The notes beneath the pieces are model-generated. The model worked only from the letters and a program-made list of their open reading frames with translations, had not been told where the DNA came from and did not search any database. Positions 5,514 to 47,319 of a DNA stretch of 64,000 bases are shown here, in pieces. The stretch is from contig OZ244587.1 in the NCBI GenBank assembly GCA_965218095.1, forward strand, positions 4,384,001 to 4,448,000, given 5' to 3'. Origin of the DNA: Candidatus Poribacteria bacterium (lineage in GTDB: Bacteria; Poribacteria; WGA-4E; PCPOR2b). Each line of letters starts with the position of its first letter. Position 1 is the stretch's first letter. The position numbers and the translations under genes were made by a program.

Positions 5514-7036
5514 GTGCGTTCCTGTGCAGCATGATGTAATAGGGGTTAAAATCCCCTGACGATAACTTGCAATCGTAAGCCTAACCTTAACTGCGTTGCC
5601 TGAAAAGGCAAGGCGGAAAGCAAAGGGAAACGGCAAATGCCTGCAAGGGAATGTAGACCCTCAGAAGGCATGTCAGGCTAAGAACGTCATGGCTAAAACG
5701 AAAGTTGAACTAGTGTAAGCTTCGTCATTTTAGATCAGGTGAATCTACGAGGGGAAGACTGAAGAACTCCCCAACTACAGCCTGTAGACAAAAGTCAATG
5801 TGGCAAGGATAACGTTTTTCACATACGTTATCAAGGAAGGTGTTTTGTGTTTATGCCTTCTAGGTTCTGTTGACATTTCAACGGAGCCATATAAGAGTGG
5901 AGACAAAGCTGAGAAATCCAAAATAACGGACAGCTAGCTTCTCAAACCGAGAGAAGATACGACGATACCATTTTATCTTGTTGATGAAACATTCAACCCG
6001 ATGTCTCTCTTTGTATAAGTGTTTGCCATACGTTCTTTGGTCAACACGATGACTTTTGGGCGGTATCACCGCAATCGCTCCATTCGCCTCAATAACGGCG
6101 ATAAAAGCGTCCGAATCGTACCCCTTGTCTCCAATCACATATTCACTGTTATATCCGATTATCAACCCTTCCGCCTCAGTTATGTCATGTCTCTGACCGG
6201 GGGTCAGATGTATTCTTAGGGGATTGCCTAGTCCGTCAACTGTGATGTGATTTTTTGTACTGAAACCGCCCCGAGACCGACCTAATGCTTGGTTTTCAGT
6301 GCCACTGTTTTTTTAAGGCGCCAGCTTTTTAAGGCACCCGCCGCAGACGGGTGAGCAGATGGTACTGTCCACAATAAGCGACTCCATATCGGGGTCAGAG
6401 GCGAAGTGGGGGTGCATCTGTGTGAAGATACCTTTGTCGCACCATCGAGCAAACCGCTTGTAGCGGGTGTTCCATTTGCCATAGGTGTCTGGTAGAATCC
6501 GCCATTGAGCCCCGCTACGAGTCACCCACAGGACGGCTTCGACGAAGCGGCGTGTAGCAGCTTCGTCGCCAACATAGATGGTGGGACAGCTTAGAAGAAA
6601 CCGGTATATCTTATTCCATTGTTCATCAGGTAAGGTTATTGGCGTCATTCTTCTATTATGCCACAACCTTATACTCAAATGTCAACAGAACCTAGCAAGT
6701 CGAATGCCATCGGGGTATAGTCAGAGCCTAAAACGTTCACGACGTACACCTTGTGAGAACAGGAAAGTCCCTAAGTTCCTGTCTCAGGAATAAGGGAAAG
6801 GAGATTCGATAGGCTTATTATTAAGCCAAGCCGAATCAGAGTCATGGTTTTGAAAGGATTCTGAAATAGGTTTACCGCTACGGAGATAATCAGGCGTAAA
6901 AACCTGTCCACCGAGCAGATTAGATATTTATCTAAAGTTTAATCACCGTTTATGACTAGGCAAGCCGTGCGCGGTGAAAGTCGCACGCACGGTTTAGAAG
7001 CAGGGAAAATTCCGCAAGGAATCTACCTATGCTTAC
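5514..7036 (+). ncRNA. ORF-less group II intron (IIB-like), copy 1, about 691 nt after removing the inserted IS5
   Basis: 5' GTGCG. Domain V AAGCCGTGCGCGGTGAAAGTCGCACGCACGGTTT (6962-6995) with AGC triad and GAAA loop. Domain VI ends CCTATGCTTAC. Domain I closing stem TTCCTGT/ACAGGAA (6759-6765). Colinear with 42125-42839. Confidence 0.93.
5863..6692 (-). mobile_element. IS5-family insertion sequence (IS427-like, two-frame transposase), copy 1, degenerate
   Basis: TIRs GGTTCTGTTGACATTT/AAATGTCAACAGAACC in a C-TA-G target. orfA 6313-6678 (WVTRSGAQWRILP...GKWNTRYKRFARW) and orfB 5878-6165 (GDKGYDSD, YKERHRVECFINKIK). Small indels relative to copy 2. Confidence 0.93.
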
Positions 7037-9522: not shown

Positions 9523-9645
9523 TTTTTGTTCACCTCCATTCTGCTAAATCTTGCTGAATCTTACGAAAATATCACAAAAACCCATAAGCCTCCTGCTATT
9601 TATTGGTTTAATTCAAACAATGAAACATGATATGTTATAATACAT

Positions 9646-9774
9646 TAGGAGTTACGCACTTCCGTTAAGCAAATCCTGCCATACCTGAATCTTGCATGGT
9701 GAATCCTGATCAAGGTACAAGATTCAAAATGCAGATAAATTGTCGAATGATTGAGACCAACTGCGTAACTTCTA
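9646..9774. mobile_element. MITE, TAGGASTTACGCA-end family
   Basis: TIRs TAGGAGTTACGCA (9646-9658) and TGCGTAACTTCTA (9762-9774). 6-bp direct repeat ATACAT at 9640-9645 and 9775-9780. Non-coding. Confidence 0.8.
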
Positions 9775-9805
9775 ATACATATTACTCATCAACTTGGAGG
9801 TCATT

Positions 9806-20586: not shown

Positions 20587-20847
20587 TAGGACTTACGCAG
20601 TTGAACATTTGAAACCTTGTAGTTCGGCGATTTATCGACAGAAAACACAACTCCCGATCCCGTTGCGTTGGTTGGATTATTCTAATCCTTACAACATCGT
20701 GGATTCACGGTAGGGAACGCAGATCTGCGTTCCCTACAGAATTGTGGGTGCTAGGTCTCGTCAGTCCCAATGGAGTATCGGGCGAACGAGACCGGCACCT
20801 GGTGTCCCATGAGTCGGGCAACTACTATCTGAAGTGCGTAAGTCTTA
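20587..20847. mobile_element. MITE, TAGGASTTACGCA-end family, with internal palindrome
   Basis: TAGGACTTACGCA and TGCGTAAGTCTTA ends, AATTG on both flanks. Internal perfect palindrome GTAGGGAACGCAGATCTGCGTTCCCTAC (20710-20737). Confidence 0.78.
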
Positions 20848-40508: not shown

Positions 40509-41940
40509 TTAGTCGGTGAAATCTGACATCTCCCACACCAGAATCGTTCCAGCCCATGACCCGGAGGCGAGTTTTGTGCCATCAGGCGAAAATGCCACCG
40601 ACATCAACCCGCGCCCATCTCCTCGAAATGTGTCGATATGTTTTCCCGTCTCGACCTCCCACAGTTCGACAGTGTTATTCGAACCCGAAACAAGCCTTGT
40701 GCCATCGGGTGAAAACGCCACCGACCAGACCCAATTCGTATGCCCCTCAAGTGTGGTGATATTTCTTTTCGTGTCAACGTCCCACAGTTTGACAGTTTTG
40801 TCCTCCGATCCCGAAGCGAGCTTCGGGCCATCGGGAGAGAATACCACAGCGTGCATCCAATCTGAATGCCCGGTGAGGAGCGCGACTTCACGAGTTGTCT
40901 TCACATCATAAAGCCAGACACCAATGTTACTTGCCACCACGATATATGCGCCATCAGGCGAAAACGCGATCACTCTGTCGCCCTGACTAATCGTCCCTTT
41001 TTCCAAGCGCGTTTTGGCTCCTTCGGGTAAATGCCACCTCCGATAATCTTGATAAGTCAGACCAGTCCGTGCATCGTCTCGCTCTTTCTGGGCAGCAACT
41101 TGCAACGCCATCTGACCGTCGCCGCGTCGATTGGGGGGAAGGGGGGCGCGGTCCAAAATGGGTGCGTTGATAATCTCAACCTTCGTCGCCGACTCTTCCG
41201 CATCAAGGTTATACGGTAGCTGAAATCGGAGCCCGTTTGTGAAACTTGAGCCGACAATCAGGGCAATCGTCACAGCGGTGGCGACGCCCTACGGAATCAG
41301 CGGTTGACCACGCGGGACAACCGGGGTGGGTTCAAAATTGCCAATTCGCTCCAGCAGTTTTCGGGTGAACGTTGGCGGCAGTTGGAAGCCTCCAAAAGTT
41401 TCCTGCATCATCTTCGTTATCTCCTCTCGTAAACGGAGGCGTGCGCGATAGAGCCGGTCTTTGATTGCACCTTGCGACGTGCCGATGAAACGTCCAATCT
41501 CCTCACAACTCAAGCCACCGAGATAGTGAAGCGTCAAGACGGTGCGTTGGCTTTCGGGCAAACTATCTAGCGCATCACGAATCTCTTGCCGTTGCTGTTC
41601 GTCGCGGTAATCCCGTTGGGCAATCGTCTCCATCTCATCGGTTTCCACGTTAGCCAGGGGGCACGTTGGCAGACGTTTTTTGCGGTGCCACATCAGGCAA
41701 CATCTCGATGCGATGACATAGAGCCAACCGGCGAAATGCACCGGGTTTCGGAGCGTCGCCAGTTTCTGATAGGCTTGGAGAAAGGCGTCCTGTGTCAATT
41801 CTTCGGCGGTGTGAAAATCACCGGTTTTGCGGTAGACAAGCGCGTGGACCGCACCTTATGTATTTATCCACCAGAAACCCAAACGCGGTCTCATCGCCCG
41901 CAAGCGTCCGTTTGATTAGTTCACCGTCACTGTGATTCAT
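40509..41940 (-). pseudogene. ECF sigma factor fused to WD40 repeats, disrupted
   Basis: ATG 41940 (LAGDETAFGFLVDKY), frameshift, TQDAFLQAY...FAGWLY...IKDRLYRAR, in-frame TAG 41289-41291, TM segment, then WHLPEGAKTRL and WD40 repeats. Confidence 0.85.
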
Positions 41941-42124
41941 CGCAGCACTCCCGTGATTAAATCGTTCCTTTTCGTCAAACAGCGGTGATACGCCTTCACT
42001 ATTTATGATGCACTCAGGAAGTGGATGGTCAGACTCTTTTTTAATTTCCTTCGGTTCCTAGCTCCTAGCCCCGCTCCCGTCAAGCCGGAGCGAGAAATCG
42101 TCCGCTTTCACAATCTAAAGTGCG

Positions 42125-42839
42125 GTGCGATTCTGCGTAGCAAAACATAATGTCGGTTAGATTCCGACTTGGAGAACTTACCTCCACAAACCTCACCTTA
42201 ACTGCGTTGCTGGAAACAGCAACGTCCAAAGCAAAGGGAAAAGGTGCATGGCTCGTAGGGAATGTAGACCCTATAGGTTGCCACATCAGGTTAGAATGAT
42301 ACGGCAAGGCGAAAGCCGAACTCATGGAAGTCTCGTGAAGTTTGAACAGGTGAATCTACAATCCTTAGCCTGTAGCCAAAAGGCATGAGCAAAGGATAAC
42401 ATCTCGCACTTATGTTATCTTGTAAGTCAGACTGCTCCGGGATAAAGTGAGTGCCTAAGTCATTGAGAATATATGTTTTGTGAGAGCAGAATAGTCCCCA
42501 TATCACCCCGATTTATCGGGGTGATATGGGAGAGGCGGACAGATAAGCCTGTCCAAGTCAAAACACAGAAATTGGGTTAAAATGGATTAAGGGAAAATGA
42601 GCGCAATATCGTGTGCCTACTCTTAAACACGGCGACTCGTCCCCAATGTTCCACAATACTTAAAAGTAAGTAGGGCTGAGATTGTCTTTCAGGATAATTA
42701 CCACAATCCAGACAGCCTAACGATTCTTTATCCGTTTACAAAGACAATCGGTAATTGACGGTGAAAGCCGTGTGCGGTGAAAGTCGCATGCACGGTTTGG
42801 AAGCAGGGAAAAATCCGTGAGGATTCTACCTATGCTTAC
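42125..42839 (+). ncRNA. ORF-less group II intron (IIB-like), copy 2, 715 nt, apparently intact
   Basis: GTGCG start. Domain I stem ATTCTGC/GCAGAAT (42486-42492). EBS1 CGCACTT (42405-42411) complements exon AAGTGCG (42118-42124). Domain V 42765-42798. Domain VI ends CCTATGCTTAC. Confidence 0.95.
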
Positions 42840-42868
42840 TAACTCCTAATGTAATTAGAAAATTGTCA

Positions 42869-44970: not shown

Positions 44971-45007
44971 TAAATGCCCGAATTGGACAGAAAAATTGAA
45001 TACATAA

Positions 45008-45286
45008 AAGCGATGAAGGGGAGGAGTAAGTCGTCCGGTCTTGACAGAGAGGGAGATTCACCGGCTGAGAGATTTCCTGAAGTAACCCCGACTGAAGGTC
45101 ATCCTGGAGCTGCTAGCCTGAAAATGCCAAGTAGGGTTAGCCGGTTTGATGCACGTTAACGCATACCAATGAGCGCCCTTTTGAGCACAGAACTTCACCG
45201 ACAAAAGGGAATCGGAGTGGTACCACGGTAAGGACTTCAAAAGAAGCCCTTCTCGTCTCCAAGTTGGAACGGGAAGGGCTTTTTTA
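45008..45286 (+). promoter_or_regulatory. T-box riboswitch (transcriptional), predicted Val specifier GUC
   Basis: GA motif, AGTA 45025-45028, AGAGA and GCTGA distal loops, GAAG-GTC-A (45098-45100), GGAG-TGGTACC-ACG pairing with CGT-CTCC, terminator AAGCCCTTC...GAAGGGCTTTTTT. Confidence 0.9.
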
Positions 45287-45642: not shown

Positions 45643-47319
45643 ATGGAAATATCAGGCGCAAAAATACTGATTGAAAGTCTCAAACGCGAAGGTGTGGAGT
45701 ACGTTTTCGGCGTCAATGGCGGTGCAGCGATGCCAATCTTTGATGCCCTCTACGAGCACCTCGATGTTAAACTAATCATGATGCGGCACGAACAAGGCGC
45801 ATCGCATGCCGCTGACGGCTATGCGCGCGCAACGGGCAAAGTCGGCGTCGCGCTTGCCACTTCAGGCCCCGGCGCAACAAATCTGGTAACTGGTATCGCA
45901 ACCGCCTTTATGGATTCCATTCCGATGGTGGCAATCACGGGGCAGGTCTTCACCCACTTAATGGGCAACGATGCCTTCCAGGAATGCGACGTCATCGGCG
46001 TCACAAGACCAATCTGCAAGCACAGCTACCTGATCAAAAGCAGTGATGAGGTAGCCGATATCGTCGCGGAAGCCTTCCACATCGCTAGCACAGGACGCCC
46101 GGGCCCTGTTGTTGTCGATTTTGCCAAAGATGCACAAATCCACGAATCACTCTTCCGTTACCCAGAGGGGGTCAATATCCGCAGTTACAAGCCCAAAGTC
46201 GATGGACATCCCCGCCAGATCGCCAAAGCCGTTGAACTGATTCATAATTCAGAACGCCCGATGCTCTATGCAGGGGGCGGCGTCGTACTTTCCAATGCCT
46301 CGGAGGAATTACGCGAGTTAGCGATTAAAACCGGTATTCCAATCACGGTGACGCTTATGGGGCTTGGTGCATTCCCCGAAACCCATCCGCTGGCGATGGA
46401 GATGCCGGGTATGCACGGCTCTTGCTGCGCGAACTATGCGTTTACAGATTCTGATCTCGTGATTGCGGTCGGTGCCCGGTTCGATGACCGCGTCACGGGG
46501 GACTTAACGAAATTCGCACCGCAAGCCAAGAAGATCCATATCGACATTGATGCCTCATGTATTGGCAAAAACGTCCCGGTTGACGTGCCGATTGTCGGCG
46601 ATGCCAAGCGCGTATTGGCGGAAATGAACAAACTCCTGCATCGCGTGGACATCGAACCCTGGATGCGCCAAATTGATGAGTGGAAAGAGAAATATCCCTT
46701 CGAGTACCACCCAAACGGCGATAAGATTATGCCGCAATACGTGATTGAGCAGATCTATGACCTTTATTCTGATGCGGTGGTCGTCGGAGATGTCGGACAG
46801 CATCAGATGTGGGCAGGGCAATACTTCAAATTCACCGAACCCCGTCAGTGGTTAAACTCCGGTGGACTCGGCACGATGGGGTTTAGCTTGCCTGCTGCGA
46901 TTGGGGCGCAACTCGGCTGTCCGGACAAAACGGTCGTCAATATCAATGGGGACGGTTCATACATTATGACGATGCAGGAACTTGTCCCCGCGATCACCCT
47001 GAAGCTCCCGCTCAAGATCTTTATCATCAACAACATGTATCTCGGCATGGTGCGGCAGTGGCAGGAGCTCTTCCACCAAAAACGTTATTCAGCCGTTGAT
47101 TACCATGATAATCCCGATTTCGCGCTGCTTGCCCAAGCATTCGGCGCGACAGGCATTCGTGTTGAACGAATTGAAGATGTCCGCCCAGCATTGGAGAAAG
47201 CAAAGGGCATCAATGATGGTCCCGTCGTCATCGACTTTATTGTCGATGAAGATGAGAATGTCTTCCCAATGGTCCCAGCGGGCGCAGGACTCGGTGACGT
47301 CATACGAGGTCTGGCTTAA
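45643..47319 (+). CDS. ilvB: Acetolactate synthase large subunit
   Basis: RHEQGA, TSGPGATN, GARFDDRVTG, SGGLGTMG, GDGS...NN, LGMVRQWQ. Confidence 0.97.
   Translation: MEISGAKILIESLKREGVEYVFGVNGGAAMPIFDALYEHLDVKLIMMRHEQGASHAADGYARATGKVGVALATSGPGATNLVTGIATAFMDSIPMVAITGQVFTHLMGNDAFQECDVIGVTRPICKHSYLIKSSDEVADIVAEAFHIASTGRPGPVVVDFAKDAQIHESLFRYPEGVNIRSYKPKVDGHPRQIAKAVELIHNSERPMLYAGGGVVLSNASEELRELAIKTGIPITVTLMGLGAFPETHPLAMEMPGMHGSCCANYAFTDSDLVIAVGARFDDRVTGDLTKFAPQAKKIHIDIDASCIGKNVPVDVPIVGDAKRVLAEMNKLLHRVDIEPWMRQIDEWKEKYPFEYHPNGDKIMPQYVIEQIYDLYSDAVVVGDVGQHQMWAGQYFKFTEPRQWLNSGGLGTMGFSLPAAIGAQLGCPDKTVVNINGDGSYIMTMQELVPAITLKLPLKIFIINNMYLGMVRQWQELFHQKRYSAVDYHDNPDFALLAQAFGATGIRVERIEDVRPALEKAKGINDGPVVIDFIVDEDENVFPMVPAGAGLGDVIRGLA

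Follow-up and report, generated by a model that had tools for sequence, protein, structure and literature searches.

A genome of a Candidatus Poribacteria bacterium (G000; single contig, 6.35 Mb, 50% G+C, assembly completeness 93.9%) carries, in the 64,000-nt stretch analysed here (the window; G000:C1:4384001-4448000), a group II intron without an open reading frame (ORF) inserted in the end of a miniature inverted-repeat transposable element (MITE). Domain I of this intron is found in five genomes, in every case interrupting the terminal inverted repeat (TIR) of its host at the same nucleotide. With a probability of about 0.8, comparison of the copies suggests that this intron lineage targets the TIR of IS701-family insertion sequences (IS) and MITEs, as a preference of the lineage.

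Target constancy in five genomes

When domain I (nt 1-406) was used as query against 176 phylum genomes (E<=1e-80, best three candidates per genome scored), one copy each was identified in G000, G014, G043, G022 and G018, which represent two genera of one family. Relatives were also sought in family-level searches in which up to 13 or up to 19 candidates per genome were scored. All five copies are flanked by AAGTGCG on the 5' side and TAA(C/G/A)TCC(T/C)A on the 3' side, i.e. by the two parts of a TIR split at the same nucleotide; the 3' exon starts with TAACTCCTA in G000, G014 and G022, with TAAATCCCA in G043 and with TAAGTCCTA in G018. A partner TIR lies upstream at a distance of 144 nt (G014), 122 nt (G022) or 193 nt (G018), so that the hosts in these three genomes are complete MITEs. 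Three kinds of subterminal sequence (...gtccgctttcacaatcta, ...cccgatgaatcgggcaactacaatctg and ...gcgcaatgaattgcgctactacaaactg) are represented and all five 3' flanks differ; judged by these sequences, the hosts are at least three MITE subfamilies at different loci. Only the window intron, among the 23 domain V introns of G000, precedes TAACTCCTA; the other 22 do not. In the G043 copy (L041, G043:C40:425-1152) 16 nt are duplicated in tandem immediately ahead of domain V, and its 3' exon start TAAATCCCA is a mutated TIR tip.

The interrupted sequence is the outward-reading end, AA(G/C)TGCGTAA(C/G)TCCTA, of a large repeat family. Its core (TGCGTAASTCC) occurs 144 times in G000 (72 per strand), compared with ~6 expected from composition, and 304 times in G014, 136 in G022, 374 in G018, 23 in G043 and 234 in G023 (controls, 5-10). 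G000 contains 36 inverted TIR pairs, 24 of them spanning 111-262 bp (MITEs) and several spanning ~1036-1087 bp and containing DDE-transposase ORFs. The transposase matches NCBIfam NF049921 IS701_2 (289.8 bits, cut-off 250) and Pfam DDE_5 (1.4e-13), the copy scored appearing truncated (246 aa; profile, 318), and AT-rich direct repeats of 5-6 bp were seen by eye beside many copies, not all. On the strength of these profile matches and pairings, the TIR is common to IS701-family IS and the MITEs derived from them. In one IS701-family IS copy (L056, G000:C1:2597896-2599619) the IS body contains a further intron without an ORF (2598356-2599120), which shares 66% identity with the window intron, indicating a second intron lineage in the same IS family, outside the TIR.

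The proposed basis of the constant insertion point is that domain I carries exon-binding sites (EBS) matched to the TIR of these IS and MITEs. EBS1 (CGCACUU) pairs with the intron-binding site (IBS) AAGTGCG at exon positions -7 to -1 and EBS2 (AGUUUG or AGAUUG) with CAAnCU at -14 to -9, with predicted cleavage 9 nt from the transposon tip. EBS1 and IBS1 are paired at 7/7 positions in the window copy; in G014 EBS1 reads CGUACUU and pairing is kept through one G-U. Compensatory changes are seen at every one of the five stem pairs of the EBS1 hairpin (alignment columns 308-312 with 322-326), and from one intron lineage to another its loop changes together with the 5' exon. A test set beforehand, a search for copies with the same EBS1 away from MITE ends, found none: 5/5 copies rejoin inside MITE ends. 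A scan of public genome contigs for the EBS1 hairpin recovered only the copies already known from G018 and G022 (two loci). In public metagenome contigs there were no exact matches to this hairpin, and a degenerate version of the scan gave four loci but no new copies, two of them matching the 23-nt hairpin only and two having no BLAST match to the intron.

EBS2 is identified by its behaviour in sister introns. In the sister family CUCGUUA is directly followed by UUAGG or UUGGG, opposite CCUAA or CCCAA at exon positions -13 to -9 and paired with them in 16/16 copies (one via G-U), and a more distant intron (L007) has UCUCC at the same position, facing GGAGA; these three covarying states place EBS2 and IBS2 of the window intron as listed in Table 1. 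IBS2 abuts IBS1 across a 1-nt gap. AGUUUG faces CAAUCU in G000 (5/6 paired), CAACCU in G043 (5/6) and CAAACU in G018 (6/6), and AGAUUG faces CAAUCU in G014 (6/6) and CAAACU in G022 (5/6). T42840, the first nucleotide of the 3' exon, is presumed to be IBS3.

Two other candidates for EBS2 were rejected. In the window copy the loop TTAGATT is a perfect complement of the AATCTAA that immediately precedes IBS1; it is invariant in 5/5 copies whereas the exon facing it (-13 to -7) varies (AATCTAA, AATCTGA, AACCTGA, AAACTGA or AAACTCA), and it pairs with AATCTA inside the intron, for which reasons it is not regarded as EBS2. This loop and its internal partner presumably correspond to alpha and alpha'. 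An extra hairpin of the sister introns (26 alignment columns, deleted in the TIR lineage) has a loop, CCACCYATG, of the same sense as the exon and not complementary to it. The loop of this sister-family hairpin (as RNA CCACCYAUG; alignment A1 columns 246-270) shares its sense with IBS2 (ACCYA) and covaries with IBS2 in 15/16 copies; being complementary to EBS2 (UURGG), it may be an internal IBS2 mimic.

The five copies are not uniform throughout. Domain I is 94-95% identical among them, and D2-D4 of the G022 and G018 copies are 68-69% like G000 and 88-94% like a sister family of ORF-less introns. The TIR-specific domain I thus stands on two backbones, which points to recombination between intron lineages. 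Domain I is also more conserved (94-95%) than orthologous flanks (77-83%), an excess that fits either recent transfer or strong constraint; conservation of domain I and domains V/VI taken together is 94-100%. The sister family is ~72% identical to the window intron and targets a different site. It comprises six copies in G023 (L005, L023, L042, L045, L048, L050), three in G017 (L006, L024, L043), six in G022 (L025, L044, L046, L049, L051, L052) and one in G014 (L026), all 16 of which follow a conserved 5' exon ...AACCYAAGTTGCTAG and have unrelated 3' flanks.

Other arrangements were noted among the related introns. The six sister copies of G023 are 98.3-100% identical to each other, and this genome (single contig, 97% complete) has no RVT_1 or GIIM match, so that the copies look like the product of recent spread without a resident reverse transcriptase (RT). 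An apparent twintron in G017 (L047, G017:C1:2980868-2981852) consists of a sister-family intron whose domain I is interrupted, immediately behind GGTGAATCTGCGTG, by a related intron. ORF-less introns at G000 468785-469559, 2598356-2599120 and 267583-268385, as well as L007, lie 6-9 nt after an AGGAG Shine-Dalgarno-like motif; an ATG directly follows the intron at 468785-469559, and L007 sits just after an ATG. This suggests that several ORF-less introns prefer translation start regions.

The window intron and its insertion site

The 3' end of the intron matches Rfam RF00029 (domain V/VI) at 63.5 bits (gathering score, 40) over model positions 1-77 of 77. Group II introns have the boundary consensus 5' GUGYG and 3' AY. 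The window intron fits this rule, with GTGCG at 42125 (first letters GTGCGATTC / GTGCGATTCTGCG) and TTAC at 42839 (last letters ...CTATGCTTAC / ...CTACCTATGCTTAC), between a 5' flank ending in ...ACAATCTAAAGTGCG / ...CACAATCTAAAGTGCG at 42124 and a 3' flank opening with TAACTCCTAATGTA / TAACTCCTAATGTAATTAG at 42840; both borders are fixed by the five aligned copies and by uninterrupted TIRs. A junction at the GTGCG of 42120, raised as an alternative in the original prediction, is excluded, as GTGCGATTC is where similarity starts in all five copies, and in 57 uninterrupted G000 sites AAGTGCG runs directly into TAA. The consensus fold (RNAalifold) has 181 pairs, 66 of them with compensatory changes (both sides changed, pair kept), counts that are descriptive and carry no statistical test since the 11 introns aligned, from eight genomes, are kin. 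No ORF of >=100 aa was found within the intron, nor did a genome-wide profile search give any RVT_1 or GIIM match there (matches lie elsewhere), and the intron is therefore classed as ORF-less.

From these sequence features the intron is a well-formed ribozyme gene, for which splicing is predicted. It may be of an IIB-like kind, the indirect signs of this being the 1-nt gap between IBS2 and IBS1 and the match of a related IEP (that of G014, described below) to chain 6me0_C. An unpaired A in domain VI (A42832) is a candidate branch point; this assignment and that of the AGC triad are read from the Rfam alignment and are putative. The intron is unique in G000 by BLAST, its nearest paralogue being 70% identical. 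The ORF-less group II intron of the original prediction is borne out in extent and kind, as is its claim of an EBS1 loop fully complementary to the 5' part of the site, the loop being relocated to the position in Table 1.

Table 1 Features of the window intron, its insertion site and comparison copies of the host repeat (window coordinates).
Feature	Position	Strand	Remarks
ORF-less group II intron, domains I-VI	42125-42839	+	715 nt; Rfam RF00029 at 3' end, 5' GTGCG, RNAalifold covariation
Relic of MITE end, 5' side	42090-42124	+	~40 nt aligning with MITE ends; with 42840-42854 on 3' side
IBS2 CAATCT	42111-42116	+	Exon positions -14 to -9; 5/6 paired with EBS2
IBS1 AAGTGCG	42118-42124	+	Last 7 nt of 5' exon, inner TIR part; same in 5/5 copies
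Hairpin loop TTAGATT (alpha-like)	42157-42163	+	Pairs with AATCTA at 42353-42358
EBS2 AGTTTG	42339-42344	+	Directly after CUCGUGA; located by covariation in sister introns
EBS1 CGCACTT	42405-42411	+	Intron nt 281-287; loop of hairpin 42394-42419
Domains V and VI	42763-42839	+	Rfam alignment; putative AGC triad 42766-42768, GAAA loop in domain V
3' exon start TAACTCCTA	42840-42848	+	Outer 9 nt (tip) of TIR; contiguous with AAGTGCG in uninterrupted TIRs
Complete 129-bp MITE, comparison copy	9646-9774		Arms 9644-9661 and 9759-9776
Unoccupied TIR end AAGTGCGTAAGTCTTA	20832-20847	+	IBS2 region CTATCT

Rejoining AAGTGCG and TAACTCCTAATGTA gives a 21-mer that is the exact reverse complement of 9641-9661, its one match genome-wide (at 9641), as had been claimed; this match spans a TIR of the complete MITE likewise proposed at 9646-9774, the 18-nt arms of which proved 89% complementary. 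The 5' exon of the rejoined site matches MITE ends at G000 3572256, 3652528 and 4341074 over ~40 nt (BLAST), a group of ends with the sequence GTCCGCTTTCAG...AATCCAAAGTGCGTAAGTCCTAA. No partner TIR was found upstream, in agreement with the original prediction: there are no inverted repeats in 41940-42124 and no TIR-like match (<=4 mismatches) within 1500 nt, and the host is hence a solo relic of a MITE end. The relic lies in the spacer between two minus-strand genes, one encoding an ECF sigma factor and starting at 41940, and the intron is antisense to both, a placement that would bring no cost to the host. At the orthologous locus of G014 the flanking genes are 82-83% identical and a diverged ~45-nt relic is present without an intron, and in G023 the corresponding 50-nt block is absent. 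These intron-free sites imply either a gain in the G000 line, of the intron alone or of the MITE end with the intron following, or a loss elsewhere.

The locus is present in sponge metagenome and metatranscriptome runs. No 42124>42840 joint, spliced or empty, was found in contigs of 4/24 runs (two RNA, two other), a result that contigs cannot turn into absence. Run contigs reach both intron borders and break inside the intron, where depth mixes related introns; the border contigs (X3 records 9 and 16; X4 records 18 and 24) enter the intron by 21-27 nt, compared with a bridging rule of 31 letters.

Elsewhere in the window, a second ORF-less group II intron is located at 5514-7036 (GTGCG at 5514; Rfam domain V/VI at 6960-7036, 52.9 bits), split at ~5860-6690 by an IS in which two transposase-like ORFs, of 95 and 121 aa, lie on the minus strand. 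A T-box leader (45004-45263; 100.6 bits, gathering score 93) lies upstream of a 558-aa ORF (45643-47319). The ECF sigma gene (41289-41940, minus strand), the intron RT gene at ~599.4 kb and several IS transposases all appear frameshifted, which would reflect either real decay or indels of the long-read assembly.

Mobility and competing explanations

We infer that the intron most likely arrived by reverse splicing into the DNA site followed by reverse transcription (retrohoming). With no ORF in the intron, an RT/maturase would have to be supplied in trans, by a related intron; an effect on MITE transposition may follow. The single GIIM match of G000 lies inside another intron at 598-600 kb. An intact candidate is found in G014, as one 579-aa intron-encoded protein (IEP) ORF (L057) with RT, maturase and HNH regions, whose best solved relative is chain 6me0_C (E=1.5e-91), from what we take to be the T. 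elongatus TeI4h complex.

Several observations weigh against targeting of the TIR by the intron itself. The window copy is in a solo relic, not a whole MITE, and there is only one intron copy per genome. In the three complete host MITEs the partner arm has AACTGCG or a sequence close to it, a mismatch at -5 that leaves one good target arm per element, and the central position of EBS2/IBS2 is mismatched in 3/5 occupied sites (G000, G043 and G022). Among the 200 AAGTGCG-T sites of G000, 50 are in TIR context and 150 outside it; 13/50 TIR-context sites are empty even with 7/7 pairing to EBS1 and 5 or 6 of 6 to EBS2 (perfect at 418195), and 11 non-TIR sites pair equally well, so that RNA pairing alone would put only about half of insertions into TIRs. 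The sole IEP gene of G000 is split by a frameshift (RVT_1 positions 1-119 fall in one frame and 111-204 in another, the latter also holding GIIM and HNH), which would mean either a true pseudogene or an indel of the assembly, and G018 (single contig, 97% complete) carries the intron, yet has no RVT_1 or GIIM match.

By these genomic criteria, present mobility is not supported in G000 or G018, and the G000 intron is probably a resident, currently immobile copy. The suggestion that MITE ends are a "renewable safe harbour" accordingly survives in part: the target preference holds at lineage level (5/5 copies), but single copies per genome, 13 empty TIR ends and a broken or missing RT speak against present activity. 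The end at 20832, put forward as a free candidate site, is present and has a perfect IBS1, but only 4/6 pairing with EBS2 by hand count.

The constant insertion point might instead descend from one entry into one MITE, the composite then being moved by transposase or by horizontal transfer, so that the five locations record a single event. One copy per genome and the lack of an RT in G018 would be expected in that case, domain I identity of 94-95% against 77-83% in orthologous flanks fits recent DNA transfer, and the G014 and G043 hosts belong to the same MITE subfamily. However, the hosts fall in at least three subfamilies with unrelated interiors, and on the upstream side of the subterminal hairpin even the hosts in G014 and G043 are unlike each other; a TIR split 9 nt from its tip should hinder transposase recognition, and complementarity of both EBS1 and EBS2 to the site is what reverse splicing predicts. 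A single entry followed by carriage is on balance improbable. A combined scheme, in which the TIR-specific domain I is a portable targeting module and the intron depends on the transposon, spreading mainly as MITE cargo or by recombination between intron copies and not by retrohoming, while marking or disabling transposon ends, is speculative and rather unlikely.

Landing of a promiscuous intron in a TIR by chance or ectopic insertion, the similarity to MITE ends having no further meaning, would be in keeping with the 150/200 AAGTGCG-T sites of G000 outside TIR context and with the 22/23 domain V matches of G000 not followed by TAACTCCTA. Such an origin is already strongly disfavoured, to the point of being barely credible, by the position of 5/5 copies at the same TIR nucleotide in five genomes when about half of the equally well pairing sites are non-TIR. 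The intron could also have been kept for a function, either blocking IS/MITE transposition or providing an RNA for the host, and not as a selfish relic: domain I and domains V/VI are 94-100% conserved, compensatory changes maintain the helices and, according to a review, RmInt1 insertion keeps its host IS from spreading (PMC5894124). With one of ~50-370 TIR ends occupied per genome, copies are too few to restrain the IS/MITE family, and in the window the host end, lacking a partner TIR, is a relic that is already dead; co-option is very improbable. Lineage-level targeting of the TIR, as proposed above, remains the preferred reading.

Related systems and significance

The closest known system is RmInt2 of Sinorhizobium meliloti GR4, all natural copies of which are within the inverted repeats of ISRm17, where retrohoming has been shown experimentally (PMC4615759; also covered in the review PMC5894124); EBS/IBS pairing over positions -14 to +1 defines its target, and imperfect EBS2/IBS2 is tolerated (PMC4615759). 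As in RmInt2, all copies of the window lineage are in a terminal inverted repeat at one position, and EBS2 pairing is imperfect at some sites (one mismatch at 3/5). RmInt2 differs in encoding its own IEP without an endonuclease domain, whereas the window intron is ORF-less and related IEPs have HNH; in being multi-copy in one strain, compared with one copy per genome; and in using left and right repeats of an IS, where the window lineage is mostly in non-autonomous MITEs and in the AAGTGCG arm only.

The TeI3 introns of Thermosynechococcus elongatus, of class IIB1, descend from introns with an ORF but have none themselves, and driver IEPs mobilise them in trans; their family F4 occupies a conserved site in ISEL1, and the families differ by diverged EBS (PMC2882425). 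The window lineage resembles them in lacking ORFs, and the IEP of a related intron (G014) is closest to solved chain 6me0_C. Unlike the window lineage, with a resident IEP that is broken or absent, TeI3 introns occur in many copies beside intact driver IEPs of their own genome, and their target is described as a conserved site in an IS, compared with a TIR common to MITEs in the window lineage. RmInt1, a group II intron on the multi-copy ISRm2011-2 (PMC5894124), is likewise specialised on a multi-copy transposon, a "parasite of a parasite", but its target is inside the IS and not in a terminal repeat, it encodes an IEP and it is multi-copy. In IStrons a group I intron and an IS are fused as one mobile unit (PMC4227781); the physical joining of a ribozyme intron to a DNA transposon is similar, whereas the window intron is of group II and lies within the end of a MITE that is a separate element. 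A further paper (PMC9769881) merely lists group II introns and MITEs as element types.

RmInt2 and TeI3 thus provide a precedent for each element of the idea, which is not new as a concept, given RmInt2 in ISRm17 and ORF-less Thermosynechococcus introns in ISEL1 (PMC4615759, PMC2882425). No earlier description of a TIR-targeting ORF-less intron in MITEs or in Poribacteria was found in the full-text literature, most subscription journals being outside its coverage. The window lineage differs from known systems in its combination of no ORF, a MITE TIR as target, one matching arm, a mosaic domain I and persistence in RT-free genomes.

The lineage, from a poorly studied, uncultured, sponge-symbiont phylum, provides a natural case, both clean and comparative, of retroelement targeting directed at DNA transposon termini, and its target-recognition domain has moved between intron backbones. 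It does not constitute a new category but carries the pattern known from RmInt2 over to introns lacking an ORF and to non-autonomous MITEs, and its defined EBS1, EBS2 and IBS, together with the intact candidate helper RT of G014, make retrohoming testable.

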